Shown here in pieces: positions 28,266 through 63,683 of a stretch of DNA of 64,000 nt. The notes under the pieces are model-generated. The model was not told the origin of the DNA. It searched no databases and saw only the letters and a program-made list of their open reading frames with translations. The stretch spans positions 30,864 to 94,863 of the forward strand of contig NZ_DASUVO010000140.1 in the NCBI RefSeq assembly GCF_036378875.1. The letters are read 5' to 3'. The stretch comes from Actinophytocola sp. GTDB lineage: Bacteria; Actinomycetota; Actinomycetes; Mycobacteriales; Pseudonocardiaceae. The position numbers were made by a program, and so were the translations under genes. Numbering within the stretch: the stretch's first letter is position 1; each line of letters begins with the position of its first letter.

Positions 28266-28679
28266 CAGTGAAAAGTACGCGTTCGGAACCGGAAACGGCG
28301 TGCTCGGTCGCGGAGTGCGTGTCGCAGGTGGACGCAGTGGAATGCCCGAACCACAAGGATTCTCGTCGCCGGTGGCGGTGGCCTGGCGCTCGCGCAGGCG
28401 CTGCACCACGCCGGGCTCGAGGTCGTCTACGAGCAGGACCCGACACCCCGCACCCGGAACCAGGGCTACCGGATCCATCTCGACCCGACCGGCAACGCGG
28501 CCCAGATGTTCGCGGCGACCTGATCAGCCTCCTGCCGGCCGTGAGCTGAACTCAAGTCGATTCGTGGATCTAGCTCAACCATCCACATGACATGGCGTGC
28601 TTCGGACACATGACTGTCCAACTGAGATGAATTCAGTTAACCTACGGCACTGGCGACGTTGCCGCGAAGGAGAACCGCC

Positions 28680-38237: not shown

Positions 38238-38241
38238 TCGG

Positions 38242-38754: not shown

Positions 38755-38772
38755 GGTCTGTCTCCTTCGATT

Positions 38773-39600: not shown

Positions 39601-39630
39601 GGGGGAATTCCGTTCTCACGGCAGGAGATG

Positions 39631-40962
39631 TCACGCGACGGTGCGTGGGGCGACCCAGTCGTCGTCGCGGGGGTAGGTCGAGGTCGCCGTGCCGGCGATC
39701 CAGCGCACCTCCGCGCTGGAGGATCGGCGGCCGAACTCGGCGATGCGCGCCGCCAGGTACTGGGCGTCGGCGGCGACACCGCAGAACCGGCCCGAGCCCC
39801 ACGTGTGCTGCCACGGCAGACCGAGGAAGTAGACACCGGGAAAGCTCGTCACGCCGCGATGATGGGTCGGGTAACCGCGACCGTCGAACACCGGGAGGTC
39901 GATCCACCGGTAGTCGGCGCCGAACCCGGTACACCAGACGACCGACCCGATCTCCGCGGCGGCAAGGATCCTCGGCTCGACCTCCGGACGCCACACCGGG
40001 TCATATCGCTTCTCGGCAGGCGCGTCGATGCCCCTGGCGGTCAGACAGGTGTCGATCGAGTCCTTGATGGACTCGGACACGGCGTCCGCCGCGTCGAGGT
40101 TGGCGCGCAGGTCGGCGGCGAAGTACAGCGTGCCGGCGCGGACGTCGACGAGCCTGCCGTAGAGCCGCATGCCGTCGCGGGCGAAGGCACGCAGGTCGAT
40201 GTCCCGGCCCCCGTCGCGGCCGGTGACATAGTGGTTGGCGCGGAACCGCACCGCGTCGACGTCGGCGAACTCGTCGATGCCGCGGCGGTAGTAGCCCATG
40301 TCCTCGAGCCACGCCACCACGTCGCGCCCCCGGTAGCGCCGGGCCACGCGTGGCGCGCTGCCCACCGCGAGGTGCACCCGCCTGCCCGCGAGGTGAAGGT
40401 CCTCCGCGATCTGGCAGCCGGACTGCCCGGTGCCCACGACCAGGATGTCGCCTTCGGGCAGCCGCGCGGGGTTGCGGTAGTCGGCGGAGTGGAGCTGGAC
40501 GATGTCGTCGGGCAGCCGTTCGGCGATACGCGGCACGCGCGGCGTCTGGTACGGGCCCGTTGCCACCACGATCTGGTCCGCCGTCAGCGTGCCCGCCGAG
40601 GTGGTCACCGTGAACCGGCCGTCAGCCTGTTGACGCAACCGGGTCACCGCGACACCTTCGGCAATGGGCACGTCGAAGGACTTCGCGTAGTCCTCGAGGT
40701 AGGCGACGATCTCGTCCCGCGGCATGAACCCGTCAGGATCTCCGCCCGGATAACCGAAACCAGGCAACTGGCACTGCCAGTTCGGCGTGACGAGACAGAA
40801 CGAGTCCCACCGCCGCTCCCGCCACTCGTACCCGACGCGCTCCCGTTCGAACACGACGTGGTCGACACCTGTCCGGGTGAGACAGTGACTCATCGACAGG
40901 CCCGCCTGGCCACCACCCACGACGACCACCGACCGGTGAACGCCCTCCCACTCCCCGGTCAT
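39631..40962 (-). CDS. MSMEG_0569-family flavin-dependent oxidoreductase (NitH-like)
   Basis: [43 protein letters not shown] and WCTGF...[13 protein letters not shown]. Confidence 0.9.
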
Positions 40963-41030
40963 CGCTCGAACCCCGCGACCGGTTGACCGGAACCGCCGGG
41001 CCGGCGTACGAGAAACCGGATTTCGGGCAC
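40959..41030 (-). pseudogene. Collapsed remnant of an MSMEG_0570-family (NitG-like) gene
   Basis: AGGAG RBS + [28 protein letters not shown] (23 aa). It matches the family N-terminus as I recall it (MPExxFxVRWPDG), the CYSPS core is missing, and the ATGA overlap with the next gene is kept. Confidence 0.7.
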
Positions 41031-41116
41031 CGCGTCTCCTCTGTCGGAGTTTCTCGGTGAAGACGGCCGAAGAAACTCCGGCAGCGTTGGCGGACCTGAC
41101 CGCGAAACCCATTCCA

Positions 41117-41141
41117 CAACCGATTCATTGCCAATCGGTTG
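41117..41141. promoter_or_regulatory. Perfect inverted repeat CAACCGATT-N7-AATCGGTTG upstream of the Nit1C-like operon
   Basis: caaccgatt cattgcc aatcggttg, about 90 bp upstream of the first gene in an AT-richer intergenic stretch. Confidence 0.6.
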
Positions 41142-41184
41142 CATCCGAACTACGCAGGTGTTTCCGGTGCCGGGGAATTGTTAC
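41138..41184 (-). promoter_or_regulatory. Degenerate GlnR-box-like pentamers
   Basis: The minus strand reads GTAAC-N15-GAAAC-N6-GTAGT-N6-GCAAC. The 11-bp phasing of the canonical GTNAC-N6-GAAAC box is only partly met. Confidence 0.35.
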
Positions 41185-41238
41185 GTACCCGACCGTTCGT
41201 GCTTAACACAACGGTCCCCACGGGTCGCGAGGGTGTTC

Positions 41239-44200
41239 TCAGTGGGAAAATACTGCGAGGTCGTAGAGGGAATAGCCGTATCCGGTCCCCCGCCGCACGC
41301 CGACCATGCGGACGTAGCGCGCCTCGGTGGCCTGGAACGTGATGTTGTCGATTCCCCCGTTGCCGGTGCTGGTGGTGTGAACCTGTCGCCACGTACTGCC
41401 ATTGGTCGATGTCTCGATCCGATAGGCCGCGCCGAAGGCGGCCTCCCAGTCCAGTCGGACCCGTGCGACCCGTCGTGTGGCGCCGAGGTCGACGGTGATC
41501 GAGTCGTTGTCGCGCCACTCGCTGGCCCACCGGGTCGTCGGGTCGGTATCGACCGCGTGTGCGGCGGGGTGGCCCGACTGTGCGCCGGTCGCGGTGGCCG
41601 TCCTGCCCAGGGCGAGGTTGGTGATGTCGTCGCCGCGGCGTGCGGGGAACTCCACCACCTGCTGGTAGGTCGGACGGTTCTGCCAGGAGATCTTGTCGTG
41701 GCCGATGCCGCCGATCTTCTGCTGCACGATCGAGTCGGCGCACCACTGGTCGCCGGCCTCGCAGTTGCCCTCGTCGCCGGGGTAGGTCACGGTCAGCGGT
41801 TCGGCCGCGGCGCCGAGCAGCGTGTCGGACAGCGCCTTTCGGCACGCGCTCAGGCCGCCACACAGCGGGGTCGTCGTCTTACCGGCCGGGTTCTCGCCGA
41901 GCACCGCGCGGATGTCCTGTGACACCTGGCCGAACCAGCCGTACTGGAACGCCGAGCCGCTGTGCGGGTGGCCGGTGTTCAGCCCGGGTTCGCCCAGCTG
42001 CCAACCGGACGGCGACTCGTTGATCCGCATGACGCCGGTCAGCGCGCGGTACGCGTCGGCGCCGACCTTCGGCTCGTAGATCGCCTTGACCAGTCGTGGC
42101 CACCACGCGTCGAACAGGGCGATCGCGCCGGCGTGCGCATAGGTGTGGCTGCCCAGGCTGGTCTCGGTGCGCTTGCCGCCGGCGGCCAGCCAGGCGCGCA
42201 GTGTCGCCGCCTGCGCGGCGGTGGCGGGGTCGCCGTCCAGCACGCGCAACAGGTTCGGCAGGATGCGCTCGGCACGCATGTCGGTGACCGCGGCGTCGGC
42301 CATGGCCTGGGTCAGGGTGACCCGGTTGACCTTCCCGCCGTTCGCGATCAGGTCGCGCACCCGCCGGTCGAGCACGTCGCCGCGCTGCACCGAGGACTTC
42401 TCCGGGCTGCCGCTCATGCCCGGCGCCTGCTTGTTGTTCCAGCTGATGTAGTAGTCCTGGTTCACCGAGTTCGGATGCTGCGCGAACGGGGTGTAGGTGG
42501 CCGTGTTGCCGTTCGGGTTCCAGTCCTGCCACTCGTTGGCCACGCCGGACCACGCCGGCAGCGCGGGATCCATTGTGGACTTGCGGACCGGGTTGTCACC
42601 GGAGTTGACGTACGCGACGTCCCGCGAGTCGGCGTAGAACCAGTTGAACGTGTAGTTGACGTCCATCGCCGCCTGCTGGAACTCCTGCGCGGAACGGATC
42701 GCGGCCGGGTCGTTGAACTTCTGGAACCCGATGATGGAGTCGGCCTCGTGGAGGAACGTCGATCGCACGGTGGTGTAGGCGACCGGCTTGCCGCCGACCG
42801 TGGCCCGGTGCGTGACCGGTCCGTACCTCGTCCGGTAGGAACGAAGCGTGTAGGAGCCCGCGGCCGTGCCGTCGGCCAGCGTCGGCGTCCAGGCATTCTT
42901 CCGCTCCACCACGTCGAACGGCAGGCACTCACCGCGGAAGCGGTAGTAGCCGGACGCCTTCGTCGGTGTGCCGCCGTTCGGTTCGCACAGCTCGACGGCG
43001 TAGGTGTCGATGATGTCCTGTCCCGCCGTGGTGGCGCTCCACGCGTAGTCCTGACCGCGGCCGAGCAGGGTGTAGAAGCTCAGTCCGGCGAACGACGCGC
43101 CCCTCGACGAGATCCCCGGCCCCTGCAGTTCCTGCAACGTCAGCAGCTGCGGCGCGAAGTACCCGGTCTGCGGGCCGAACACGGCGACCGGGTGGCCGGA
43201 CTCGGTGTGGGCGCCGGAGACCACCAGCGCGTTGGACATCCCCCGCGCCTGGAACATCCCGGCCGCCGCGGCCTGCTGCTGGGTGGAGACCGCTGACCCG
43301 GTCTGGTCGAACACCATCTGCTGCGGGGTCACCGATCCCTTGTCCGGCAGGGCGAGCCCCTGTGGGTTCGCCGGCGACGCGGCATAGGGGAACGACCGTC
43401 CATCGTGGATGGTGCTGATCGCCTCGGGGTCGTTCTGCGACTGGAACTCCTGCCAGCGCCGCTCGCCCTCCGCGAGGCCGTAGCGCTCCTGCAGCGCGAG
43501 CTTCGCGACAGCCTGCTGCACCTCGTTGCCGCCGCCACCGCCGAACTGCGCGCCGACGAGCGACGCCAGCACGACGATGTCGGTCAGCGTGAACGGCTCG
43601 ATGGTGCCGGCGTTGGTGATCGCGTCGATCTTGCCGATGGCCACGTACTCCCCGGGGAAGTACCGGCCGTCCTTGGCCTGCCTCGCGTAGGCGTTGATGC
43701 CATCCACATAGGCCTGTGCGTCGGAGTACGCCAGCTCGCCGGCGGGCCCCTGCCTGCGCACGCTCTCGATCTGCGCGGTCAGTTCCTGCTCCGTGTAGGG
43801 CGACGCGGCGAAGAAGCCCTGTTCCAGCACGCGGTTACCCTCGGCACCTCCGGCGAACGAGGTCACCTGGCCGCGCCCGGCACGCCGCATCACGTCCATG
43901 AGGAACAGCTTGTTCTCCGCCGTGGCGTACCCGGCGCCGAACATGGTGCCCGACCGGGTGGTCCCGTAGATGTGCGGGACGCCGGCCTTCTTGTCGCGCA
44001 CCACGGTGACGTCCGCGCGCGGCTGGTAGCTCCGCTCGATGTCGTCGGCGGCCACGCCGAACGAGTTGTCGTTGAAGAACTGGGTGATCGTGTCCGTGGT
44101 CAGGGTCTGGTACCCGCTGGCCAGGCTCCCGTACATCCCGAGCTGGTCGGCGGAGTGGGCCGGCCTGGCCCCGCTGACGGTGTGCGCCAGGAGCTCGGCG

Positions 44201-44385
44201 AAGGTCGCGTTGCCGTTCTGTCCCGGTGGCAGGATGTCCGCGCACTGCCCGAGGCAGTAGTCCAGCTGGGATGCCGTCCGCACCGTCACCGGTGCCGCCA
44301 TCGCGGGCACCGTGACCACCGCCGCGACCGCCGCGCCCACGGTCAGCACGCCGAAGGCCCTTTTCGTCCACGAACGACCAGACAT
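41239..44385 (-). CDS. Secreted penicillin-acylase-family Ntn hydrolase with a C-terminal F5/8 type C (CBM32/discoidin) domain
   Basis: Signal peptide ...VPAMA; RDKKAGVPHIYG; beta-chain start RGM/SNALVVSG; WNNKQA; C-terminal NLALGRTATAT...TRWASEW...DLGA...VRMVG...YSLYDL. Confidence 0.9.
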   Translation of the reverse strand: MSGRSWTKRAFGVLTVGAAVAAVVTVPAMAAPVTVRTASQLDYCLGQCADILPPGQNGNATFAELLAHTVSGARPAHSADQLGMYGSLASGYQTLTTDTITQFFNDNSFGVAADDIERSYQPRADVTVVRDKKAGVPHIYGTTRSGTMFGAGYATAENKLFLMDVMRRAGRGQVTSFAGGAEGNRVLEQGFFAASPYTEQELTAQIESVRRQGPAGELAYSDAQAYVDGINAYARQAKDGRYFPGEYVAIGKIDAITNAGTIEPFTLTDIVVLASLVGAQFGGGGGNEVQQAVAKLALQERYGLAEGERRWQEFQSQNDPEAISTIHDGRSFPYAASPANPQGLALPDKGSVTPQQMVFDQTGSAVSTQQQAAAAGMFQARGMSNALVVSGAHTESGHPVAVFGPQTGYFAPQLLTLQELQGPGISSRGASFAGLSFYTLLGRGQDYAWSATTAGQDIIDTYAVELCEPNGGTPTKASGYYRFRGECLPFDVVERKNAWTPTLADGTAAGSYTLRSYRTRYGPVTHRATVGGKPVAYTTVRSTFLHEADSIIGFQKFNDPAAIRSAQEFQQAAMDVNYTFNWFYADSRDVAYVNSGDNPVRKSTMDPALPAWSGVANEWQDWNPNGNTATYTPFAQHPNSVNQDYYISWNNKQAPGMSGSPEKSSVQRGDVLDRRVRDLIANGGKVNRVTLTQAMADAAVTDMRAERILPNLLRVLDGDPATAAQAATLRAWLAAGGKRTETSLGSHTYAHAGAIALFDAWWPRLVKAIYEPKVGADAYRALTGVMRINESPSGWQLGEPGLNTGHPHSGSAFQYGWFGQVSQDIRAVLGENPAGKTTTPLCGGLSACRKALSDTLLGAAAEPLTVTYPGDEGNCEAGDQWCADSIVQQKIGGIGHDKISWQNRPTYQQVVEFPARRGDDITNLALGRTATATGAQSGHPAAHAVDTDPTTRWASEWRDNDSITVDLGATRRVARVRLDWEAAFGAAYRIETSTNGSTWRQVHTTSTGNGGIDNITFQATEARYVRMVGVRRGTGYGYSLYDLAVFSH

Positions 44386-44417
44386 CGTTGTCCTCTCGTA
44401 GCACGACGATTGGATCG

Positions 44418-44441
44418 TGACTTGAACACTCGTCCAAGTCA
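44418..44441. promoter_or_regulatory. TetR-type operator, copy 1: TGACTTGAAC-N4-GTCCAAGTCA
   Basis: Near-perfect palindrome in the 72-bp gap between the divergent acylase and TetR starts. Confidence 0.75.
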
Positions 44442-44457
44442 AGGGCAGGATGGCGCA

Positions 44458-45060
44458 ATGGCACGGGTACCGGTCGCTCAGCGCAGGTGGCAGCTGATCG
44501 AGGCGACCATCGCGCTGCTCTCCCGCGAGGGCGTCGGTGCCGCGTCGATCCGGCGGATCAGCGAGGAGGCGGACGTCCCGCTCGGCCTCGTGCACTACTG
44601 CTTCGCCTCGAAACAGGAGCTGATCGCCGAGACGATCCGGCAGCTGAACACGGAGAACACGACGGCGGCGCGGGCGGCGCTGTCCGTCCCGGCCGACGCG
44701 GGAACGGACCTGAGGAGCGCGCTCACCGCAGCGTTCCGGGCGTACTGGTCACTGGTCGAACGGTCGCCGAGGCGCCAGCTGCTCACCTACGAGCTGAACG
44801 CCTATGCGTTGCGCGACAAGGAGCTTGCCCCGATCGCCGAGCAGGCCCATCGCGAGCTGCTGACCAATGTGCGCGTCCTGCTCGACGAGATCGCGACGGC
44901 GACCGGCCGGCAGTGGACGGTGCCGCTGGACGACGTCGCCCGGCTGGTCGTCACGGTCACCGGCGGCGCCACCCTGAACTGGCTCAACGACAGGGACTCC
45001 ACGGCCGCGCTGACCACGGCAAACCTCGTCGTCGGCGCGCTCGACGCGCTCGCCACCTGA
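44458..45060 (+). CDS. TetR-family transcriptional regulator
   Basis: LIEATIALLSREGVGAASIRRISEEADVPLGLVHYCFASKQELI (tail of ORF 43405..45060). Confidence 0.92.
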   Translation: MARVPVAQRRWQLIEATIALLSREGVGAASIRRISEEADVPLGLVHYCFASKQELIAETIRQLNTENTTAARAALSVPADAGTDLRSALTAAFRAYWSLVERSPRRQLLTYELNAYALRDKELAPIAEQAHRELLTNVRVLLDEIATATGRQWTVPLDDVARLVVTVTGGATLNWLNDRDSTAALTTANLVVGALDALAT

Positions 45061-51773: not shown

Positions 51774-52982
51774 CTACCCCTCCGCCAAGAGCGGCCAGAT
51801 CGCGGCCGCCACCGCCAGCAGGCGATCGTCGTCACCGGAGGGAGTGGACAGCAGCACGCTGCCACGCAGACCACCCGGCAGCGCGCCATGCGGCACGGCG
51901 ACCCCCGGCAGACCGAAGTAGCTCAACAACATCGTCGTGCGCAGAGCCCGGCGGTTGGCCGTCGCCATCACGTCCAGGTCCGCCAGCAGCGGAGCAACCG
52001 CCGGCGCCGGGTCACGGACCGTCGGGCACAGCAGGACCGCGCCAGCCAACTCCTCGACCAACCGGTCCCGCAACCCCGCCTGCGCGGCACGCACCACCGG
52101 CTCACCGGCCGCGTTGAAGTCGGCCAACCGACGCAGCACCAAGGGATCCACATCGCTCGGCCCGGCCAAGAAGTGGCCATGCCGCGCATACGCCTCGGCG
52201 ACGGCCAGCGTGCCGTGCCGGTCCATCAGCTCCTGCGCTTCGCCCAACGACGGCAGCGGGCGGTGGTCGATCCGCACACCGGACCGCGCCAACGCGGCCA
52301 GCGTGTCCTCGAACGCGGTCCGGACGGCCGGGTCGCAGTCGTCCAGCAGCTCGCCGGTCGGGACCACACACCGGAACTCCGTCTCATGCGACTCGACCGG
52401 CGCGCCACGCAGCCACGCGTCGGCACGCACCGCGGCCGCGACGTCATGCGTGAACACACCGATCGTGTCGAGACTCGGCGCGAGCGGCTGCATGCCGGTG
52501 CGGTCGTAGCGATCGATGCTCGCCTTGTACCCCACCAACCCGCAGAACGCCGCCGGCACACGCACCGAACCGGAGGTGTCCGTGCCGACCGCCAGGTCCA
52601 CGATCCCGTCCGCCACCGCCACGGCCGACCCGGACGACGAGCCGCCCGGCACCCGGTCCGGCGCCAGCGGGTTGACCGGATTGCCGAAGTGCGGGTTCAA
52701 CCCCAGCCCCGAGAAAGCGAACTCGCTCTGGTTCGTCTTCCCGACACACACCGCGCCGCGGGCTGCCAGGTTCCGCACGATCGGCGCGTCCTCCGTTGCC
52801 ACCGGCACGTCGCGACGAGTCGCGGAACCGTTGGTGGTGCGTGTGCCGGCGACGTCGAACAGGTCCTTCCACGCGACCAGCGGGCCCGGTCCTTCCCGGC
52901 GCGCTCGCTCCGCCGTGACCGTGATGAACGCGGCCGACTCCCGCGCCCTGCGCAATGCCTCCTCGATCCGGTCAGACATCAT
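51774..52982 (-). CDS. Amidase-signature family amidase (short N-terminus)
   Basis: AWKDLFD (Lys), PGGSSSGS (cis-Ser) and GTDTSGSVRVPA (Ser nucleophile). Confidence 0.9.
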   Translation of the reverse strand: MMSDRIEEALRRARESAAFITVTAERARREGPGPLVAWKDLFDVAGTRTTNGSATRRDVPVATEDAPIVRNLAARGAVCVGKTNQSEFAFSGLGLNPHFGNPVNPLAPDRVPGGSSSGSAVAVADGIVDLAVGTDTSGSVRVPAAFCGLVGYKASIDRYDRTGMQPLAPSLDTIGVFTHDVAAAVRADAWLRGAPVESHETEFRCVVPTGELLDDCDPAVRTAFEDTLAALARSGVRIDHRPLPSLGEAQELMDRHGTLAVAEAYARHGHFLAGPSDVDPLVLRRLADFNAAGEPVVRAAQAGLRDRLVEELAGAVLLCPTVRDPAPAVAPLLADLDVMATANRRALRTTMLLSYFGLPGVAVPHGALPGGLRGSVLLSTPSGDDDRLLAVAAAIWPLLAEG

Positions 52983-53090
52983 CCACCCCCACGTCCACGT
53001 CCACGTCAGCGTGCCGGCAGTGTGACCGACAGGCGGCGGCGGTACGCGTCCAGGACCACCGCGACGCAGGGTGTTCGCCGACCCAGATGA

Positions 53091-54257
53091 CTATCGGAGA
53101 ATGAGCGGGAGCGACTGCAGACCGGTGAAGTCCGGCGAGGGCTGGGAGACCGGCGGTCGTTCCGGGTCGGTGCGCAGGTCAGGGTAGCGGTCGTACAGGA
53201 TGTTCAGCGCGACCCGGCCCTCCAGCCGGCTCACCGACGTGCCAAGGCAGAAGTGCACACCGAGCCCCCAGGACAGGTGCAGGTTGATGTCGCGGTTCGG
53301 GTCGAACTCGTGTGGGTTCGGGAAGATGCGTTCCTCACGGTTGGCCGCGCCGATCCACACCGAGACGAGCCGGTCGCGCGGGATCGCGTGCCCGCTGACT
53401 TCCGTGTCGACCATGGTCGCCCGGATGATGCGCTGGAACGGCGGGTACATCCGCAGCGACTCCTCGAGCGCTCCCGGCAGCAGTGTCCGGTCGTCGAGGA
53501 TCCGCTTGGCCTGCACGGGGTTGATGTCCAGCGCCAGCACGGTGTTGGCGAGCATCGACGCGGTGGTGACGTGCCCGGCGATCAGCATCAGGTTGGCGAA
53601 GTTGACGACCTGGGCGTCGGTGAGCCGCTCGCCGTCCACCTCCGCCTGGACCAGGGCAGTGAGCATGTCGTCGCGCGGGGAGCGCCGACGGTCGGTGGTG
53701 TGTTCGAGTAGGTAGGCACGCAACTGCTTGATGTCGGCGACGCGCTGCTCCATCGCGGCCGCCACGTCCTCCAGCGCGTCCTTGTCGCTGTTGAGGTGCT
53801 TGGTCATCAGCTGCTTGAACCAGACCCGGTCGGACCCGGGAACGCCGAGCATCTCGGCGATCACGATCACCGGCAGCGGGTAGGCGAGCGACTCCACCAG
53901 ATCCATCCGGTCCCCGTCGCCGGCCTCGTCCAGCAGCTCGTGGGTCAGCGCGGCGACGCGCGGCTCCAGGTCGGCGACCATCCTCGGCGTGAACCCGCGG
54001 TTGACGATCTTGCGCAGCTGGGTGTGCTCGGGTGGATCGAGCCGCACCATGTTCCCGTCGGTCAGTTCCGTCGCGAACTTGAACTTGCTCGGCATCAGCC
54101 GCTGGGAGTTGCTGGAGAAGGTCGCGGGATCCAGCATGATCTTCTGCGCGTCGTCGTATCCGTACACGTGGTGGATTCGCGTGTCCTCGTCGAACCGGAC
54201 CTTCGCGGGCGGCAGCTCCCCGCGCATCCAGACGTGCTGCTCATGCGTGTCGAACAC
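53091..54257 (-). CDS. Cytochrome P450, EryK/CYP113-like macrocycle-tailoring type
   Basis: LDPPEHTQLRK, AYPLPVIVIAEMLG, IAGHVTT, EESLR and WGLGVHFCLG heme motif. Confidence 0.9.
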   Translation of the reverse strand: MFDTHEQHVWMRGELPPAKVRFDEDTRIHHVYGYDDAQKIMLDPATFSSNSQRLMPSKFKFATELTDGNMVRLDPPEHTQLRKIVNRGFTPRMVADLEPRVAALTHELLDEAGDGDRMDLVESLAYPLPVIVIAEMLGVPGSDRVWFKQLMTKHLNSDKDALEDVAAAMEQRVADIKQLRAYLLEHTTDRRRSPRDDMLTALVQAEVDGERLTDAQVVNFANLMLIAGHVTTASMLANTVLALDINPVQAKRILDDRTLLPGALEESLRMYPPFQRIIRATMVDTEVSGHAIPRDRLVSVWIGAANREERIFPNPHEFDPNRDINLHLSWGLGVHFCLGTSVSRLEGRVALNILYDRYPDLRTDPERPPVSQPSPDFTGLQSLPLILR

Positions 54258-55680: not shown

Positions 55681-57111
55681 GTGCCGATGTCCGCCGCCGG
55701 ACTGCTGACCACGACCGACGACGACCTGCTGCACCGGTTCACGGAGTCGGCCAACACACAGGACCGGGTGCTGGTCCCGACGCCCTCGTTCCGCAGCTGG
55801 TTCGCCGAACGCGTGCAGGCCAACAGCTATCGGGTCACGCGAGTTCCGTTCGGCGGGCTGTCCGGCTGGCGGTTCCAACCGGACACCGGGAACCTCGTGC
55901 ACGACAGCGGCCGGTTCTTCACGATCGAAGGACTGTCGGTGAACACCGACCACAGCGAGCGCGCGCACTGGACGCAGCCGATCATCCGGCAGCCGGAGAT
56001 CGGCATCCTCGGCATTCTGGTCAAGGAGTTCAACGGTGTCCTGCACTGCCTGATGCAGGCCAAGATGGAGCCGGGCAACGTCAACCTGACCCAGCTCTCC
56101 CCCACCCTGCAGGCCACCCGCAGCAACTACACCCGGGTACACAAGGGAAAGCCCATTCCGTACCTGGAGTACTTCATGGCACCGTGGCGTGGCCGGGTGC
56201 TGGTCGACGTGCTGCAGTCCGAGCAGGGCGCGTGGTTCCTGCACAAGCGCAACCGCAACATGGTCATCGAGGTCACCGACGACATCCCGGTGCTCGAGGA
56301 CTTCTGCTGGCTGACGCTGGCGCAGCTGCACGAGCTGCTGCACGTCGACAACCTGGTCAACATGGACTCGCGGACGGTGCTGTCCGGCATCCCGTTCGCC
56401 GCGCCGGTCGACCGGCCGTCCATGCTCGACGAGGACTCGTTCCGCGGCGCGCTCCTGCGGTCCCTGGCCGAGCGCAAGGGCGCGCTGCACGAGCTGCCAT
56501 CGTTGCTGAGCTGGTTCACCGAGGCCAAGACCAAGCACAGCCTTGACCAGCAACGGATCCCGCTCAACCAGGTGTCCAGGTGGCACGCCACCGACGAGCA
56601 CATCAGCCGTGACGACGGCAAGTACTTCACGGTGATCGGCGTCGACGTCCGTGCGAGCAACCGCGAGGTGGCGCACTGGACGCAGCCGATGCTGGCGCCG
56701 GTCGGCCAGGGGCTGCTCGCCTTCCTTGCCAAGCGGATCGGTGGCGTGCTGCACGTGCTCGTCCAGGCCCGCACGCAGGCGGGCACGTTCGACGTGATCG
56801 AGATGGCCCCGACCGTGCACTGCACGCCGGAGAACTACGCTGGCGCCGAGCCGCCGCCGTACCTACGAGAGGTGCTGGAGGCCCCACCCGAGGCGATCAA
56901 GCACGACGTCGTGCACTCGGAGGAGGGCGGCCGCTTCCACCACGCGGAGAACCGCTACCTGGTCGTCGAGGTCGGTGACGACTTCCCCGTCGAGGTGCCA
57001 CCGGACTTCATCTGGATGACCGCGCGGCAGGCCACCGATCTGGTGCGGTACAGCAACTACTTCAACGTCGAGGCACGCAGCCTGCTGACGTGCCTGCACA
57101 CCCTGTGGTGA
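55681..57111 (+). CDS. NDP-4-keto-6-deoxyhexose 2,3-dehydratase (EryBVI/OleV/Rif-Orf18 family)
   Basis: LVHDSGRFF, WTQPIIRQPEIGILG, LMQAKMEPGN, QLSPTLQATRSNY, LQSEQGAWFLHKRNRN and HSEEGGRF. Confidence 0.95.
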   Translation: MPMSAAGLLTTTDDDLLHRFTESANTQDRVLVPTPSFRSWFAERVQANSYRVTRVPFGGLSGWRFQPDTGNLVHDSGRFFTIEGLSVNTDHSERAHWTQPIIRQPEIGILGILVKEFNGVLHCLMQAKMEPGNVNLTQLSPTLQATRSNYTRVHKGKPIPYLEYFMAPWRGRVLVDVLQSEQGAWFLHKRNRNMVIEVTDDIPVLEDFCWLTLAQLHELLHVDNLVNMDSRTVLSGIPFAAPVDRPSMLDEDSFRGALLRSLAERKGALHELPSLLSWFTEAKTKHSLDQQRIPLNQVSRWHATDEHISRDDGKYFTVIGVDVRASNREVAHWTQPMLAPVGQGLLAFLAKRIGGVLHVLVQARTQAGTFDVIEMAPTVHCTPENYAGAEPPPYLREVLEAPPEAIKHDVVHSEEGGRFHHAENRYLVVEVGDDFPVEVPPDFIWMTARQATDLVRYSNYFNVEARSLLTCLHTLW

Positions 57112-57161
57112 GCCGGACGCGCGAAGAAGATCGCCGCCGATAGTCTGATGAGGAATCGGTG

Positions 57162-57182
57162 AACCGTTGCCGCACAACGGTT
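57162..57182. promoter_or_regulatory. Perfect inverted repeat AACCGTTG-N5-CAACGGTT upstream of the multicopper oxidase
   Basis: aaccgttg ccgca caacggtt, about 35 bp before the oxidase ATG. Confidence 0.45.
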
Positions 57183-57217
57183 GTACTCCCATGAGAAAAC
57201 GCAGGAGAAAATACCTG

Positions 57218-59197
57218 ATGGATGATTCCGTCGACCGTCGAACCTTCCTCGCCTCGGCCGTGCTCGGGTCCGCGGGCGTCGTGGCGGGCGTGAGCCTGCT
57301 CGGTGCGAGTGCCCCGGGTGCGACGGCCTCGGCGGCGACAGGCCGCGGACGATTAGCACCGTCCGCGGCGCCGAACTTCGGTCTCACCAAGTTCCTCGAC
57401 GCGCTGAGGATTCCGCCGGCGATCCGGTCATCCTCGCGACAGAACCTGGACGATCTCACGATCACGATGACCAATGCGCGGATACGGCTGCACTCGCAGC
57501 TGCCCGAGACCACGGTGTGGGCCTACGAGGGACAGTTCCCCGGCCCGACCATCGAGGTGCGTAGCGGCAGGCGGCTGCGGGTCGCGTGGACCAACGAGCT
57601 CGAGGGCACGGTCCCGCTCGTGGCGGTGCGGGCGCCGTTCGCGCAGCCGACACCGGCGAACGTGCCCGGCTACCGCAACCCGGACGGCAGCCTGCCCGCC
57701 GGGGTCGAGCTGATCGACGGTGTCGCCGAACTGCCGCCGTGGAACGTCGTGCACCTGCACGGCGCGCTGACGAACGGCGGCAACGACGGCTGGGCGCACA
57801 ACGGCATGCTGCCGGGGAGCACGCAGCTCACCGAGTACCCGAACCGCCAGGCGGCGACGGCACTCTGGTACCACGACCACGCGATGGCCGTGACGCGCTT
57901 CAACGTGTTCGCCGGTCTGGCCGGCATGTACCTGATCCGGGACGACGAGGAGGACGCGCTCGGACTCCCGGGCGGTGACCACGAGATCCCGCTGATCATC
58001 GCCGACCGCAACCTGGACACCGACCCCGCGACCGGCGCGCTCACCGGTCAACTGCTGTTCAAGTTCCAGTACCTGCCAGCGAACGGCATAGCTGCCCCCG
58101 TCACCGGCCCGTTCACCCTCGTCAACGGCGTCATCTGGCCGCACCTCGACGTCGAGAAGCGCTGGTACCGCTTCCGCGTGCTCAACGCGGCGAACGCCCG
58201 GTTCTTCCGTCTCAACCTGGTCGACGAGGCGGGCACCGTCCAGAACGACGCGGTCCGGATCGCGGGCACGGACTCCGGCCTGCTGCCCGCCCCGGCGCCG
58301 ATGCCCGCGGGCGGGCTGACACTCGCCCCGGCCGAGCGGGCCGACCTGCTGATCGACTTCAGCCGGTTCCCGGGGCAGCGGCTGCGTCTCGTCAACACCG
58401 GTGCCACGGTCGAGCCGGACATCATGGAGTTCCGCGTCGGGAACCAGGGCCAGCCCGACCCGTTCCAGTTGCCGGCCCGACTGTCCACATCGTACGTCCG
58501 ACTGGCACATGGCACGACCGTGCCGGAGGACCACGACGAGGTGTTCGTGGCGACGACCTCTGCCGGTGTGGCCGGCCGAGCGCACCCGGAGATGTGGGAG
58601 CTGACGGAGATCACCGACCCGGACGAGCTGCCGGAGCAGTTCCCTGCGGAGGGGGTCATCCAGCTCACCGACCCCGCGACGGGAAACGTGCGAACGTTCC
58701 GGAAGGTCGCGCGCCTGTTCGACGACACGACGACGATCTTCATCGACCGAGGCCGGTGGGTGGTGTGGAACCTGCTCCAGCTCGGCGGGGCCCCGCACCC
58801 GACGCACATCCACATGGCGCGGTTCCAGCTGCTGACCCGGCGGACCTTCACCGACCTGACGGCTTTCGACATCGCGGCCGGCGGCACCACCCGGCCGCTG
58901 CCCGCACCGAACGACGGCCCGCCGATCGAGAAGTACGAGGAGGGCTGGAAGGAAACCTTCAACCTGCGGCAGGGTGAGTGGATCACGGTCGCCGGCCAGT
59001 TCGAGGGCGCGACCGGCGAGTTCATGTACCACTGCCACATCCTCGACCACGAGGACGAGGGCATGATGCGCCCCTTCGTCGTACACCCCGCCGAGGTGGC
59101 CCGGTTCCACATGCACTCGGGTGGCTCCAACCACGGCGGGCATTCAGCCGCCTCCAGCAACACCGCGCCCTCGAGCGGCCACGGTGGGCACTCGTAA
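57218..59197 (+). CDS. Tat-exported multicopper oxidase (PhsA/CotA-like) with a His-rich tail
   Basis: DRRTFL twin-arginine signal; all four Cu motifs (VHLHG, WYHDH, HPTHIH, YHCHILDHEDEGMM); AGGAGA RBS. Confidence 0.92.
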   Translation: MDDSVDRRTFLASAVLGSAGVVAGVSLLGASAPGATASAATGRGRLAPSAAPNFGLTKFLDALRIPPAIRSSSRQNLDDLTITMTNARIRLHSQLPETTVWAYEGQFPGPTIEVRSGRRLRVAWTNELEGTVPLVAVRAPFAQPTPANVPGYRNPDGSLPAGVELIDGVAELPPWNVVHLHGALTNGGNDGWAHNGMLPGSTQLTEYPNRQAATALWYHDHAMAVTRFNVFAGLAGMYLIRDDEEDALGLPGGDHEIPLIIADRNLDTDPATGALTGQLLFKFQYLPANGIAAPVTGPFTLVNGVIWPHLDVEKRWYRFRVLNAANARFFRLNLVDEAGTVQNDAVRIAGTDSGLLPAPAPMPAGGLTLAPAERADLLIDFSRFPGQRLRLVNTGATVEPDIMEFRVGNQGQPDPFQLPARLSTSYVRLAHGTTVPEDHDEVFVATTSAGVAGRAHPEMWELTEITDPDELPEQFPAEGVIQLTDPATGNVRTFRKVARLFDDTTTIFIDRGRWVVWNLLQLGGAPHPTHIHMARFQLLTRRTFTDLTAFDIAAGGTTRPLPAPNDGPPIEKYEEGWKETFNLRQGEWITVAGQFEGATGEFMYHCHILDHEDEGMMRPFVVHPAEVARFHMHSGGSNHGGHSAASSNTAPSSGHGGHS

Positions 59198-59211
59198 CCA
59201 CTAACACAACG

Positions 59212-59248
59212 ACCGACCCGCAGTGCCCATGGGGCGCTGCGGGTCGGT
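59212..59248. terminator. Bidirectional hairpin terminator
   Basis: 17-bp stem ACCGACCCGCAGTGCCC / GGGCGCTGCGGGTCGGT (one G-T pair) with a 3-nt loop, between the convergent oxidase and P450 genes. Confidence 0.8.
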
Positions 59249-59271
59249 TCGGTCCTGGTCGGCGTACGCCT

Positions 59272-60534
59272 TTATGGTGCGTCCCAGGTGATCGGCAGTT
59301 CCTGCACGCCATAGGCGAGCATGTCGGGGCGCAGGGGGACCTCCTCTGGCGGCACCGTGAGGCGAAGATTGGGCAGGCGTCGCAACAGTTCGACGTAGCC
59401 GACCGCCAGCTCCATCCGGGCCAGTTGCTGGCCGAGGCACTGGTGCACGCCGTGGCCGAACGCCATGTGTGAGGTCCGCACCCGGTTCAGGTCCAGCTTG
59501 TCCGGCTCCTTCCAGTGCTCACTGTCCCAGTTGACGGCCAGCAGCGAGATCACCACGGTCGAGCCGGCCGGGATGTGCTCGCCGCCGAGTTCCAGGTCCT
59601 CCTTGGGGAACCGGAAGACTCCGGTGTTGCTGACCGACAGGAAGCGCAGCAGCTCCTCGACCGCGTCGCCGACGCGGGACGGGTCGTCGCGCAGCATGGC
59701 GAGTTGCTCGGGGCGCTGCAGCAACACGAAAATGCCCAGCCCCAACATTCTCGCCGTGGTTTCGAAGCCGGCGATGAGCACCAGGTTGATCATATTGATC
59801 AACTCGTCGTCGGTGAGCGCCGGATCGGCCCCTGCGTGGTGGATCAGGCCGGAGATGATGTCGTCGACCGGGTTCTCGCGCTTGTCCGTCACCAGCCGCT
59901 GTATGAACGCGCGCAGGGCTTCGTAGTTCTCCTGCGCCACCGTGATCGGCACGTCCATCTGCATCAGTGCCGCCGCGCGTTCCTGGAACTCCGCCCGGTC
60001 CTCGTAGCGCACCCCGAGCATCTCGCAGATCACCAGCGAGGGCACCGGGAACGCGAAGTCCGCCATCAGATCGGCGGTGTTTCCCTTGGCCAGCATGGCA
60101 TCCAGCTGCGCGGTGACGATCTCCTCGATCCGTTCGCCGAGTATGCGGATCCGGCGGACCGTGAACTGCCCGGTGAGCAACTTGCGGTAGCGGGAGTGCT
60201 CCGGCGGATCCATGTTGATGAACGACCCGGCGCGCGCCTTGTCGTCCCGCATCTTCGCCTTGGTTTCCTCGGACAGCTGTTTGAACCTGGGGTGGTAGGT
60301 GAACCGGTCGGCGGAGAACCGCGGGTCCGACAGCACCGCACGAGCCTCTTCGAACCCGGACACCAACCAGAACGGGTCACCGGTGGGCAGCGCCGCCTTG
60401 GTGATCGGGGTTCGCTCGTTCTGGTTCGCCAGGGCCGACGGCAGCGTGAACGGGTCTTCGCGGTAGAAGAACTCGAGGGGAAGCGGTGCGCGGAGTGATT
60501 CGCCGGCTGGCGGATTCTCGGTCTTCTGGGTCAC
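59272..60534 (-). CDS. rif16: Cytochrome P450 (CYP105 clan), Rif16-like
   Basis: IAGFETT, EELLR and FGHGVHQCLG. Distinctive segments (REDPF, YHPRFK, RDDKARAGSFINMDPPEH, LIHHAGADPALTDDELIN, C-terminal WDAP) match my recall of A. mediterranei Rif16. Coupled directly downstream of a split transketolase. Confidence 0.8.
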   Translation of the reverse strand: MTQKTENPPAGESLRAPLPLEFFYREDPFTLPSALANQNERTPITKAALPTGDPFWLVSGFEEARAVLSDPRFSADRFTYHPRFKQLSEETKAKMRDDKARAGSFINMDPPEHSRYRKLLTGQFTVRRIRILGERIEEIVTAQLDAMLAKGNTADLMADFAFPVPSLVICEMLGVRYEDRAEFQERAAALMQMDVPITVAQENYEALRAFIQRLVTDKRENPVDDIISGLIHHAGADPALTDDELINMINLVLIAGFETTARMLGLGIFVLLQRPEQLAMLRDDPSRVGDAVEELLRFLSVSNTGVFRFPKEDLELGGEHIPAGSTVVISLLAVNWDSEHWKEPDKLDLNRVRTSHMAFGHGVHQCLGQQLARMELAVGYVELLRRLPNLRLTVPPEEVPLRPDMLAYGVQELPITWDAP

Positions 60535-61460
60535 CGCGAAGCCTCCCCGTCCTCAAGGAAGCCGGTGATCGACTCGGCCAGGCTCGCGGCGTCCAGCCCG
60601 TGCAGCCGGTCGTGGTCCGCGGCACTTCCATAGGCGCGCACCTCCTGGTCCCGCCGGACACCGAGTGATCGCAGCCGGTGCGGCACGTCGCCGAGCGCCT
60701 CGGCCACCTCGTGCGCGGAGGTCCCACGCAGATAGGGCTCGACCATCACCACGTTCGGCGCCGATGCCACCACCGCCGAGCGCAGACCCGCGTGGTCGAA
60801 CGGCCGGACCGTGGACGCGTACAGCACTGTCACGTCCATAGTGGACGTCGCGGCGAGGACGGCCGCCAGCACCGGACCGACCGCGACCACCACACCGGCG
60901 CCACCCTGGCGCAGCACGGTGAACCCGTCCGAGAGCGGAATCGCCTCGCTGTGGACCTTGTCGGACAGTCGCAGGTAGACCCGGCCGTCACCGGCGATCG
61001 CCTTCCGCAGCAGCGGCTCGACCTCGTCCTCGTGGCCCGGCACGTGCACGGTCCAGCCGGGCACCGTGTCGAGCAGCGCCACGTCGCCGGGCGCCTGGTG
61101 GGTCCGGCCCCTCGGTATGTCGTCGTAGGAACTGCCGATGCCGACCAGCACGGCGCCGACGTCCTGGTGTCCGAGGCTGATCTTGATCTGCTCGAACGGC
61201 CGCTCGACCAGGAACGGCGCGTAGGTGTGCACCACCGGCCGGTACCCGGCCAGCGACAGGCCGCCCGCGATCCCGATCATCGCCTGTTCACGGATCCCGA
61301 CGTTGACCACCCGCTCCGGATACCGGGCCCGCGCCTCGTTGAAGAACGGTGACGAGATGTCCGCGGTCACCAGGGCCAGCTTGGAGTTGGTGGACAAGGA
61401 CTCGACCACGGTCTCGACGAAGACGAGACGCATCAGCTTTCGGGTCACCTGAGTGGTCAC
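60531..61460 (-). CDS. rif15b: Split transketolase, pyrimidine-binding/C-terminal subunit (Rif15b-like)
   Basis: VNVGIREQAMIG, HTYAPFLVERPFEQIK, THQAPGD and DRLHGLD; its stop overlaps the P450 start. Confidence 0.8.
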   Translation of the reverse strand: MTTQVTRKLMRLVFVETVVESLSTNSKLALVTADISSPFFNEARARYPERVVNVGIREQAMIGIAGGLSLAGYRPVVHTYAPFLVERPFEQIKISLGHQDVGAVLVGIGSSYDDIPRGRTHQAPGDVALLDTVPGWTVHVPGHEDEVEPLLRKAIAGDGRVYLRLSDKVHSEAIPLSDGFTVLRQGGAGVVVAVGPVLAAVLAATSTMDVTVLYASTVRPFDHAGLRSAVVASAPNVVMVEPYLRGTSAHEVAEALGDVPHRLRSLGVRRDQEVRAYGSAADHDRLHGLDAASLAESITGFLEDGEASR

Positions 61461-61533: not shown

Positions 61534-62223
61534 TCATGCCATTCCCCCCGCGCTGTCGTGGATCTCCGCGACCACGGCCTGTGGCCGCCCGTCGCGTGCC
61601 TGGGTCAGCGCCCGGTACAGCTCGTCGTGGTCGCGACCGTCCACAGTGGTCGTGAGCCAGTTCTCCGACTCGAAGCGCCTGGCGATGCCACCCGGCCAGC
61701 CGAGGCTCGCCGAGGAGTTGTCGATCACGATCGCGGTGAGCTGGTCGAGCCCGAGCCGCCCGGCGATCGCGATCGCCTCGTGGTTGCTGCCCTCGTCGAA
61801 CTCACCGTCGCCCAACATCACGACGACCCGGGCGCTGCGGCCGTCGGCACGCAGCCCGAGCACGGTCCCCACGCCGAGCGGGAGCCCTTGCCCGAGGGAG
61901 CCACTGCTGATCTCGACCCCGGGCACCAGCACCCGGTCCGGGTGCAGACCGAGCGGCGAGCCGAGCTTGGCCCAGGTGTTCAACTCGTCCGGGTCGATGA
62001 AGCCCTTCGCGGCGAGCACCGCGTAGTAGGGCATCGGCGCGTGGCCCTTGGAGAGATAGAACCGGTCCCGGTCGGGATCGTCGATGTTCGCCGGCGACAC
62101 GTTGAGCACGCGGTCGTAGAGCACCCAGATCGCGTCCTGCGTCGACGTCAGCGACAACATGTGCGCGTTGCCCCCGACCATCCTGTCGATGAAGCCTTGT
62201 AACGTCTGTTCTGTCGTCTGCAC
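61534..62223 (-). CDS. rif15a: Split transketolase, ThDP-binding N-terminal subunit (Rif15a-like)
   Basis: DRDRFYLSKGHA, GLHPD, SSGSLGQGL and GDGEFDEGSNHEA...VIDN ThDP motif. Start is GTG 62223 or TTG 62238. Confidence 0.8.
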   Translation of the reverse strand: MQTTEQTLQGFIDRMVGGNAHMLSLTSTQDAIWVLYDRVLNVSPANIDDPDRDRFYLSKGHAPMPYYAVLAAKGFIDPDELNTWAKLGSPLGLHPDRVLVPGVEISSGSLGQGLPLGVGTVLGLRADGRSARVVVMLGDGEFDEGSNHEAIAIAGRLGLDQLTAIVIDNSSASLGWPGGIARRFESENWLTTTVDGRDHDELYRALTQARDGRPQAVVAEIHDSAGGMA

Positions 62224-62365
62224 TGGTTCCACCTGCAACGCTTCCCGGGTTGTGGTGATCAGGCCGGCTTGCGGACCGTCAGGAGAAGTCCAGTCTTGCC
62301 CAGACCGCTCGTCCAGGACATCACCAACGTGGGTAGCGGTGGCAGGCCCCGGCACCGGCCAAGCC

Positions 62366-62528: not shown

Positions 62529-63683
62529 TTGTTGAAGGTCATCATTCTTTCCGGGATCACCCCCTCGACGTTCTTCGCTCATGTCTCGCTCGCAACGGCC
62601 CTGCGCGACGCCGGGCACCAGGTGATGGTGACCGCCGCCGCCGACGACGTGATCCCGAGCATCGCGGCGGCCGGGCTCCCCGCCCTACCGGTCATGGAGC
62701 CGGGACTGACCCGAGAGCAGATCTTCGCCGAGGCCGGGCTGGCACGGGTGCCGGAGGACGCCGTCGAACGTGAGTACATGGCGGGTCGGTGGTTCGCGCT
62801 CATCGAGACCAAGCCGCTCGACGCCCTCCTGGCGTTCGCCAAGGACTGGCGCCCGGATGTCGTCGTCGGGGGCATGCTGGCCTATGGCGCGCCGCTGCTG
62901 GCGGCCCGTCTCGGGGTCCCGTACGTGCGGCAGGCCTGGGACATCCACAACCCGAAACTGTTCGACGCGGGGGCGGCGTTCCAGTTGCGGGAGGCGTTGG
63001 CGGAGCTGGGGCTGGACGGCCTTCCCGAACCCGACATGATGATCGAGGTCATGCCGCCGAGCCTGCGCACACCGGAGACCAAGCCCGCGCAGGCGATGCG
63101 GTGGATCGCGGGCAACTCGCAGTGTCGCCTGGAACCGTGGATGTACACCAAGGGTGCGGACACCCGGATCGGCGTCACCATCGGGACGGGAGTGGCGGAC
63201 TACAACCAGTACGACTTCGTCGAGGGCATCGTCAAGAACATCGCCACCCTCGACGTCGAGGTGGCGGTGGCGGTCCCCCAGGCCGCCGTCCCCGTCCTGC
63301 GGGAACGCCTGGACGAGAACGTCCCGGTGGGCTGGGCCCCGCTCGACGTCCTCGCACCCACCTGCGATGTCCTGGTGCACCAGAGTGGTGGCAGCACCAT
63401 GATGACGGCGTTGAGCTTCGGGGTGCCTCAGATCCTGCTCCCCGACGCCGGGCAGTTCCGCCAGGGCGACATGGCACGCCGCCTCGTCGAGGCCGGCGCC
63501 GCACTGACACTCTCCCACGAGCAGGCCACGACCGAGATCATCGCTGAGACCTGCCAAGAGATGATCTCCAACCCGAGCTACGCCGCGGCCGCGGCCGGGC
63601 TCGCCAAGGAGATCGCCGCGCTGCCCCTGCCATCCGAGGTGGCCAGGCGCATCGAGTGGCTCGTCCACGAAACGTCCGCATGA
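62529..63683 (+). CDS. GT1 natural-product deoxysugar glycosyltransferase (UrdGT2/EryCIII-like)
   Basis: AGGAGG RBS + TTG; LATALRDAGHQV, WRPDVVVG, GWAPLDVLAPTCDVLVHQSGGSTMMTALSFGVPQILLP. Confidence 0.9.
   Translation: MLKVIILSGITPSTFFAHVSLATALRDAGHQVMVTAAADDVIPSIAAAGLPALPVMEPGLTREQIFAEAGLARVPEDAVEREYMAGRWFALIETKPLDALLAFAKDWRPDVVVGGMLAYGAPLLAARLGVPYVRQAWDIHNPKLFDAGAAFQLREALAELGLDGLPEPDMMIEVMPPSLRTPETKPAQAMRWIAGNSQCRLEPWMYTKGADTRIGVTIGTGVADYNQYDFVEGIVKNIATLDVEVAVAVPQAAVPVLRERLDENVPVGWAPLDVLAPTCDVLVHQSGGSTMMTALSFGVPQILLPDAGQFRQGDMARRLVEAGAALTLSHEQATTEIIAETCQEMISNPSYAAAAAGLAKEIAALPLPSEVARRIEWLVHETSA

Follow-up and report, generated by a model that had tools for sequence, protein, structure and literature searches.

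We analysed a multicopper oxidase gene in a 64,000-nucleotide window of Actinophytocola sp. DNA, where it lies within a block of rifamycin-type genes. The protein is predicted to be exported by twin-arginine translocation (Tat), and the proteins that share its signal form a single clade. Our survey of gene contexts showed that the oxidase is a recurrent, non-exclusive accessory gene of rifamycin/kanglemycin-type clusters, with rifamycin-type neighbours at 13 of 25 informative signal-bearing loci and at none of 63 signal-less loci. We tentatively suggest, with a probability of about 0.4, that it is an extracellular laccase-type enzyme which would oxidise an exported naphthohydroquinone antibiotic.

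The oxidase protein and its relatives

The gene and the main parts of its product are listed below by window position.

57218..59197, + strand: multicopper oxidase gene, 659 amino acids, PhsA family, signal-bearing clade
57218..57334, + strand: predicted Tat signal peptide, residues 1-39, with DRRTFL, a hydrophobic core and ASA-A (cut before the last A)
57752..57763, + strand: copper motif 1, HLHG, residues 179-182, aligning with HLHG of PhsA and CotA
57866..57880, + strand: copper motif 2, WYHDH, residues 217-221, aligning with PhsA and CotA
58796..58813, + strand: copper motif 3, HPTHIH, residues 527-532, aligning with PhsA and CotA
59030..59065, + strand: copper motif 4, HCHILDHEDEGM, residues 605-616, aligning with PhsA and CotA and supplying the type-1 Cys, the His and the axial Met
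59099..59194, + strand: C-terminal tail rich in His, Gly and Ser, with 7 His among the final 40 residues

The likely start codon is ATG 57218, because AGGAG lies 10 nt upstream at 57203-57207 and orthologues share the initial MDDSVDRR. A longer start at TTG 57167 was unsupported. The third-position guanine plus cytosine (G+C) content of the reading frame is 0.91, which is comparable to that of the adjoining genes. Pfam matches to Cu-oxidase_3 (2.6e-19, 69.9 bits, cut-off 21) and Cu-oxidase_2 (9.1e-21, 74.5 bits, cut-off 20.4) were found. We searched for the copper-ligand patterns HxH, HxH, HxxHxH and HCHxxxHxxxxM; the oxidase has all four, and every copper ligand is kept throughout the signal-bearing clade. 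Judging from its sequence, the protein is almost certainly a three-domain multicopper oxidase of the PhsA/CotA laccase lineage.

The N-terminus is MDDSVDRRTFLASAVLGSAGVVAGVSLLGASAPGATASA, followed by A after the predicted cut. The signal was judged by motif against the Tat consensus, in which S/T-R-R-x-F-L-K precedes a hydrophobic region that ends in an AxA cleavage site. The oxidase has D-R-R-T-F-L-A at residues 6-12 (RRTFL at 7-11), hydrophobic residues at 13-31 and ASA-A at 37-40, and export via Tat is predicted. A lipobox cysteine is absent; since the sole cysteine is the copper ligand Cys606, the protein is not a lipoprotein. The preliminary description had claimed an intact four-copper oxidase with a twin-arginine signal, and this is borne out by the Pfam matches, the four motifs, and RRTFL with AxA.

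PhsA of Streptomyces antibioticus (PDB 3GYR) gave a near full-length match (E 8e-155, window residues 55-644 against chain residues 10-608). It has the same copper motifs and ends in a similar HGGAHGGHGE tail. The PhsA model NF045554 is also the best NCBIfam match, but its score of 709.3 bits is below the cut-off of 950, and for this reason we classify the oxidase as a PhsA relative and not as a PhsA equivalog. The PhsA-like signal-less clade has no Tat signal, whereas the window oxidase carries RRxFL. The CotA/bilirubin oxidase group agrees in its copper-site motifs (WYHDH, HCHIL.HED..MM) and is homologous at E 2.5e-77. However, the window oxidase is about 150 residues longer than CotA, aligns with it in three separate stretches only, and has another predicted cellular location. 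CotA oxidises a broad range of hydroquinones and phenols. The Tat route and the overall fold are shared with CueO/FtsP-type oxidases, but CueO aligns more weakly than PhsA, and the NCBIfam scores of 163.8 bits (CueO, cut-off 525) and 118 bits (FtsP) are far under the cut-offs. The Met-rich insert that CueO has over its type-1 copper site is absent from the window oxidase, whose 659 residues include 13 Met, with no stretch of 40 holding more than 4.

Two further enzymes resemble the oxidase in other ways. MclF, from the megalochelin siderophore cluster, was called highly related to the S. arenicola rifamycin and the kanglemycin oxidases by its authors (PMC10127220), and we liken it to the window oxidase on that description. 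It is likewise uncharacterised; it belongs to a nonribosomal peptide synthetase siderophore cluster, and has been proposed to cross-link catechol and histidine (PMC10127220). The fungal rifamycin-B oxidase EC 1.10.3.6 (Monocillium, Curvularia, Humicola) is alike in the proposed reaction, B to O to S with O2; the likeness is by function only, and no homology is claimed. Our literature searches, the latest of them poorly targeted, found no characterised enzyme among the papers covered.

Genomic contexts of the signal-bearing clade

We surveyed the best 120 homologues for the signal. RRxFL was found in the top 41 or so (at least 68% identity), barring a few evidently miscalled starts, and the remaining homologues begin MT(D/E)VI and are without a signal. 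In a neighbour-joining tree built from the mature region only, the signal-bearing proteins form a single clade nested within the signal-less family. The exact window protein has no entry in the protein collection; its nearest match, at 86% identity, is encoded on a soil contig that shares the gene order.

Associations were counted at loci with readable context, and a locus was scored as linked if rifamycin-type genes lay within 10 kb. The difference between signal-bearing and signal-less loci was highly significant on earlier counts of 12/26 and 0/60 (Fisher's exact test, p = 6e-8). The 13 linked loci are the window, the syntenic soil contig, L001, L002, L005, L008, L012, L014, L026, the kanglemycin cluster, M. 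rifamycinica, M. halophytica and L088. In M. rifamycinica the oxidase directly follows rifK-L-M-N-Q-P. In M. halophytica it directly precedes rifS/T-like genes, orf0 (a P450) and a rifA-type polyketide synthase (PKS) with a RifA-type loading module, and at L088 it stands at the cluster edge between rif20 and rif15B. Export genes are often adjacent: ATP-binding cassette (ABC) transporters in the kanglemycin (kng) cluster, L002, L005 and L026, and RifP/RifQ in Micromonospora. The association is found in Micromonospora, Amycolatopsis, Actinomadura and soil DNA, and each of the tree's three main subclades contains cluster-linked members. At least six distinct proteins named 'copper oxidase [uncultured bacterium]' also belong to the signal-bearing clade; they probably derive from the soil cosmids of Peek et al., which were probed for AHBA (3-amino-5-hydroxybenzoic acid) and rif15 genes.

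Between clusters, the oxidase is 71-92% identical and Rif16 66-94%, so that the oxidase is the more conserved of the two. The pairwise identities of the two proteins are correlated (r 0.80, Mantel p 0.002), partly due to two close pairs, and shared ancestry would also produce such a correlation. The co-occurrence with rif genes raised in the preliminary description takes the form of a strong enrichment. Its term 'dedicated' rifamycin oxidase was too strong, because about half of the clade lies outside any ansamycin cluster.

Peek et al. have described two soil clusters, RifCon12 and RifCon6, with the order glycosyltransferase (GT)-15A-15B-16-oxidase-18-20-P450 (Peek et al. 2018, PMC6175910 supplement). 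Their oxidases have 656 (orf43, RifCon12) and 658 (orf50, RifCon6) amino acids, and the terminal P450s have 386 and 388 (PMC6175910). The gene order is identical to that of the window, and the gene sizes are nearly so. Both tables name the gene "copper oxidase" and give it neither a rif counterpart nor a role. In the kanglemycin cluster of A. vancoresmycina, kng31 is tabled as "copper oxidase" with '-' in the rif-homologue column; the main text gives roles for many extra kng genes and none for the oxidase (PMC6175910). A 2023 paper states that the function of the cluster copper oxidase is not established. In the A. vancoresmycina genome, kng31 is flanked by ABC transporters and by a carboxyl transferase, a different placement from that in the window.

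The '-' for kng31 shows that the canonical cluster, that of A. mediterranei, lacks a counterpart of the oxidase, and the preliminary description likewise knew of no such enzyme there. The novelty at first ascribed to the gene was overrated, since published clusters already annotate a "copper oxidase" gene. It is on record, but without an assigned role, in every published cluster carrying it. What is new here is the synteny with RifCon12/RifCon6 and the kanglemycin-like type, the Tat signal as the mark of a single clade which alone is cluster-associated, the leader motif that accompanies the oxidase gene, and a cassette that recurs inside and outside clusters.

This cassette consists of an NmrA-like reductase, a P450 that is only 35-37% identical to Rif16, and the exported oxidase. 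Some copies border rifamycin-like clusters, and others stand alone in genomes. The cassettes of L004, L026 and probably L087 add an aromatic-ring hydroxylase dependent on flavin adenine dinucleotide. The coordinates within each locus are as follows.

L004: 5156-11950
L084: 7516-11971
L087: 5296-11920
L082: 7587-11953
L083: 7763-11905
L026: 6030-14270

Some genomes hold several family members. In Amycolatopsis sp. NPDC051045, an exported copy belongs to a rifamycin-like cluster (L026), another exported copy is at an ordinary chromosomal locus (L016), and a signal-less paralogue is also present (L051), so that this genome offers a natural three-way comparison. L006 and L050 both come from Amycolatopsis sp. 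A133.

Proposed function of the putatively exported enzyme

In the proposed mechanism, the oxidase would fold and take up four coppers in the cytoplasm, and the Tat pathway would export it, with the signal cut near residue 39. Outside the cell, the 1,4-naphthohydroquinone ring of the exported ansamycin would give up electrons one at a time to the type-1 copper, and the trinuclear site would reduce O2 to water. A hydroquinone of the SV type would be converted to a quinone of the S type. A 4-O-glycolyl compound (B-type, from Rif15/Rif16) would be converted to an O-type spiroketal, hydrolysing to the quinone. The role of the oxidase would be to determine how oxidised and how active the secreted product is, with no part in building the molecule or in feeding quinone to the cytoplasmic Rif15.

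The proposal is favoured by the sequence identity of the enzyme, its predicted export, the enrichment at rifamycin-type clusters, the intact copper ligands, conservation above that of Rif16 with correlated identities, and the export genes that often adjoin it. Several reports also bear on it. Qi et al. (2018) treated the step from SV to S as spontaneous, and an in-vivo oxidase was 'not excluded'. Late cultures of S. arenicola lose rifamycin B and gain S, for which the authors invoke a rifamycin oxidase; the rif cluster of this species has been reported to carry a related oxidase (PMC10127220). M. rifamycinica, whose cluster carries a signal-bearing oxidase gene, yields rifamycin S. For A. rifamycinica, only a signal-less 62% paralogue was found among the 80 best genome hits.

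A number of observations weigh against the proposal. Twelve of the 25 informative signal-bearing loci lie outside ansamycin clusters, in ordinary or unrelated contexts. These include several Amycolatopsis chromosomal loci, a Micromonospora locus and a soil contig; in Actinokineospora the gene adjoins recA and succinate-dehydrogenase-like genes, in Kutzneria it is in an ESX locus, and one of the twelve adjoins ArsR/RibD_C genes. Given that about half of the clade is found in ordinary contexts, a general function exists without an ansamycin. Within clusters, the oxidase keeps to the edges and its position varies, which would suit a passenger gene. The leader motif containing the upstream palindrome (described below) is common to non-cluster and signal-less paralogues, and regulation may not follow the pathway. 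Hydroquinone oxidation already runs with O2 and metal ions, and with the latter is fast without an enzyme (Qi et al. 2018), which makes the need for an enzyme questionable. A. vancoresmycina carries the gene, yet the ring of its kanglemycins is described as a naphthohydroquinone (Peek et al. 2018, PMC6175910). The S. arenicola oxidase was not among the 80 best genome hits.

Much of this would suit a general extracellular phenol or aminophenol oxidase, acting in pigment formation, cross-linking, phenolic detoxification or morphogenesis, whose gene would be a bystander at cluster edges without a pathway role. PhsA itself has been reported to be dispensable for actinomycin production, which is in line with such a role, as are the contexts outside clusters, the variable and always peripheral position, and the shared leader motif. 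However, a bystander does not readily account for the enrichment in rifamycin-type clusters, for its recurrence in three genera and soil DNA and in all three main subclades, or for an oxidase that is conserved more strongly than Rif16. We regard this explanation as somewhat unlikely, though it has to be taken seriously.

The preferred reading, extracellular oxidation of the exported antibiotic, can be extended to a scheme that may be put as 'detoxify inside, re-arm outside'. Inside the cell, Rif15/Rif16 would mask the active quinone as a B-type compound of weak activity, a pump would export it, and the oxidase would restore the active quinone via the O-type spiroketal. We consider the extended scheme doubtful. 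If true, it would explain the build-up of rifamycin B in producers without the oxidase (the A. mediterranei lineage), the S-type products of carriers, and the linkage to clusters of one signal-bearing clade of an otherwise cytoplasmic family.

Enzymatic control of the rifamycin redox state in the producer, and of the conversion of B to O/S, is a question that has been standing since the late-step work of 2018, and the unassigned oxidase is an obvious candidate for that conversion. If it is a rifamycin/kanglemycin oxidase, it would be a bacterial, clonable substitute for the fungal rifamycin-B oxidase used for rifamycin S. It would also account for differences in product spectrum among producers, and would be a case of extracellular antibiotic activation. 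If it is not, the gene can leave pathway models. The clade result itself gives a simple genomic marker, and a contrast between signal-bearing paralogues, which are cluster-linked, and signal-less ones, which never are.

An extracellular tailoring role would be PhsA-like: an amine, thiol or aminophenol would be coupled oxidatively to the naphthoquinone (giving 3-substituted or iminoquinone products), or dimers would form. PhsA is the closest characterised relative, laccases are generally known to aminate hydroquinones, S. arenicola extracts hold 3-thio- and thiazole-type rifamycins (awamycin, rifamycin P), and the recurrent cassette suggests joint redox chemistry. However, none of the kanglemycin cluster's products has been ascribed to the oxidase (Peek et al. 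2018, PMC6175910). The cassette partners (NmrA-like reductase, P450 and hydroxylase) are absent for the window oxidase within 64 kb, and no amine-donor genes adjoin it. Such tailoring is unlikely.

It is quite improbable that the enzyme serves copper homeostasis as a cuprous oxidase of the CueO kind, with a copper sensor acting on its gene at the upstream palindrome. Tat-exported multicopper oxidases such as CueO do serve copper tolerance, the tail of the window oxidase is His-rich, and the upstream motif accompanies the gene and not the pathway. Against this, the CueO model falls well short of its cut-off and the Met-rich segment is absent, as described above. Copper-handling genes were not among the neighbours of the oxidase, either here or at ten annotated related loci, one of which holds a signal-less paralogue next to molybdate-uptake and molybdenum-cofactor genes. 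The palindrome does not seem to resemble CsoR/RicR-type sites.

The oxidase may instead belong to a rifamycin-modifying or self-protection module with the NmrA-like reductase, the P450 and the flavin aromatic hydroxylase, which may persist in genomes without a cluster. The cassette does occur both inside (L004, L026, L084) and outside (L082, L083, L087) clusters. However, the window copy has no cassette partners, oxidation of the hydroquinone to the quinone does not inactivate rifamycins, and no rifamycin-responsive element was identified, which together make this explanation very improbable.

Finally, the preliminary description had noted that Rif15 uses the quinone rifamycin S, and Rif15 does require the quinone (Qi et al. 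2018) and the gene does lie near rif15/rif16, but an intracellular SV-to-S oxidase that supplies rifamycin S to Rif15 is barely credible because the conserved Tat signal is predicted to place the oxidase outside the cytoplasm, where neither Rif15, which depends on thiamine diphosphate (ThDP), nor the cytoplasmic ThDP and sugar phosphates that it uses would be found, because the reduced form of nicotinamide adenine dinucleotide phosphate directly reduces S to SV (Qi et al. 2018), and because the signal-less paralogues, which would be the cytoplasmic ones, are never cluster-linked.

Control sequences and neighbouring genes

Two elements upstream of the oxidase and one downstream were delimited.

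57150..57217, + strand: leader region, core GC.GCACAACGG(G/T)TGTAC.CCC ... GCAGGAGAA, Shine-Dalgarno AGGAG at 57203-57207
57162..57182, no strand: perfect 8+8 palindrome AACCGTTG-ccgca (N5)-CAACGGTT, within the leader
59211..59249, no strand: hairpin with an 18-bp stem between the convergent oxidase and rif16, within a 74-bp gap

About 0.14 chance matches to the palindrome are expected per window even with 3 mismatches permitted, and its exact form was found in none of 84 related loci searched. The right half is better conserved than the left, and the left arm is degenerate in several relatives. The palindrome is part of a leader motif of about 45 nt, also written GC.GCACAACGGGTGTAC.CCCC ... 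GCAGGAGAA, which occurs across Micromonospora, Amycolatopsis, Actinokineospora and Actinophytocola. It precedes cluster oxidases (L001, L002, L005, L026), the oxidase at the cluster boundary in L004, non-cluster oxidases (L003, L015, and more weakly L086), and signal-less Actinophytocola paralogues (L017-L021, L031). Other leaders are found at the cluster copies L008, L012, L088 and L081.

The motif appears to belong to the oxidase gene family and not to the antibiotic pathway. Because it also stands upstream of non-cluster and signal-less paralogues, pathway-specific control through the palindrome is unlikely. We also considered the rifamycin-associated element, a rifamycin-responsive promoter element, but this is a G+C-rich 19-bp repeat which the palindrome does not seem to resemble. 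Two kinds of control had been considered for the palindrome at the outset, with control by copper instead of the pathway counting against a rifamycin oxidase: a pathway-specific site is disfavoured by the shared motif, which points in that direction, and for a copper response we found no evidence.

We also considered an RNA hairpin or riboswitch, and rejected it. An alignment of 15 leaders gave only 5 pairs with essentially no covariation at -1.5 kcal/mol, and the fold of the window leader was no better than that of shuffles (z -1.15). The Rfam search of the leader gave no match at E up to 5. We therefore treat the palindrome and leader as a conserved sequence motif, which may be an operator or leader RNA. 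In Actinophytocola leaders, a second stem (CCCCTGCG/CGCAGGAGG or CCTGGCA/TGCCAGG) would mask the Shine-Dalgarno sequence, as judged by eye.

Scans of 56900-59500 for promoter and terminator consensus sequences found nothing. The gap between the rif18-like dehydratase and the oxidase is 106 bp, with both genes on the same strand and no terminator detected, and the oxidase could be transcribed by read-through from rif20-rif18. No RNA sequencing runs with the window DNA were found; the only matches were soil metagenomes, with at most 17% of sampled words.

The hairpin at 59211-59249 has a folding free energy of -45.4 kcal/mol (z -5.24), and none of 200 shuffles folded equally well. A T-run terminator scan detected no T-run at this site. 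It is likely to be a two-way terminator, and its place between the oxidase and the convergent rif16 matches what was first described.

The genes around the oxidase are as follows.

53091..54257, - strand: P450, 87% identical to the 388-amino-acid kng P450
54460..55677, + strand: PapA5-type acyltransferase (rif20-like), Pfam PapA_C, NCBIfam PapA5 subfamily, 66% identical to the kng gene
55681..57111, + strand: nucleoside-diphosphate-hexose 2,3-dehydratase (rif18/kngR18-like), 90% identical to the kng gene
59272..60534, - strand: P450, rif16 orthologue (rifamycin L to B/O), matching 5YSM/5YSW at E 9e-209
60531..61460, - strand: rif15B-like transketolase subunit, Pfam Transket_pyr, 74-77% identical to rif16 neighbours elsewhere
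61534..62355, - strand: rif15A-like transketolase subunit, Pfam Transketolase_N
62529..63683, + strand: glycosyltransferase of EryCIII type, sharing 81% identity with the GT of the kanglemycin cluster

The entries 5YSM and 5YSW are the Rif16 structures of Qi et al. (2018), and the 388-amino-acid kng P450 has been tied to methylenedioxy-bridge formation by Peek et al. (2018). This layout confirms that the oxidase lies downstream of an acyltransferase-dehydratase unit and converges on rif16 across the hairpin. The block was initially called rif-like; the linkage of rif15-, rif16-, rif18- and rif20-type genes stands, but the type is kanglemycin-like (K-sugar type) rather than plain rifamycin, because the P450, the dehydratase and the GT are 87%, 90% and 81% identical to A. 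vancoresmycina kng genes. The oxidase is 70% identical to kng31, against these higher values, and may have diverged more, or have another history, than its kng-like neighbours.

No PKS or AHBA genes were found in the window up to base 64000, although such genes do lie close by at the related loci of M. rifamycinica and M. halophytica. Since ordinary, unrelated genes lie left of about 51.7 kb (Asp23, DUF72, GT87, penicillin amidase, radical S-adenosylmethionine (SAM), dihydroxy-acid dehydratase, a Streptomyces antibiotic regulatory protein (SARP) and others), the window covers only the outer 11-12 kb or so of the cluster, which continues past the right end.

At the extreme cluster edge, an amidase-family gene (51774-53090, - strand) follows closely behind the kng-like P450 on the same strand. 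It is not shown at the equivalent place of the syntenic soil contig, and the RifCon12/RifCon6 tables stop at the P450. The amidase gene may thus be an accessory specific to this cluster, or else the first gene of the flank. The SARP-type regulator (24855-28523, - strand, Trans_reg_C, BTAD and AAA_16, about 1220 amino acids) lies about 25 kb off the cluster edge, in the stretch of highest G+C content in the window (0.75-0.76 against about 0.69). A same-strand run at 37182-44748 (- strand) contains a radical-SAM gene, a small unknown reading frame, an amidohydrolase, a flavin monooxygenase (Pyr_redox_3/FMO-like) and a penicillin-amidase-family protein of 1170 amino acids with a C-terminal F5/8 type C domain, and may be a separate small metabolic island. 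A second glycosyltransferase of EryCIII/UDPGT type (3639-5072, + strand) is distant from the cluster, and adjoins a patatin-like phospholipase and a major facilitator superfamily transporter.

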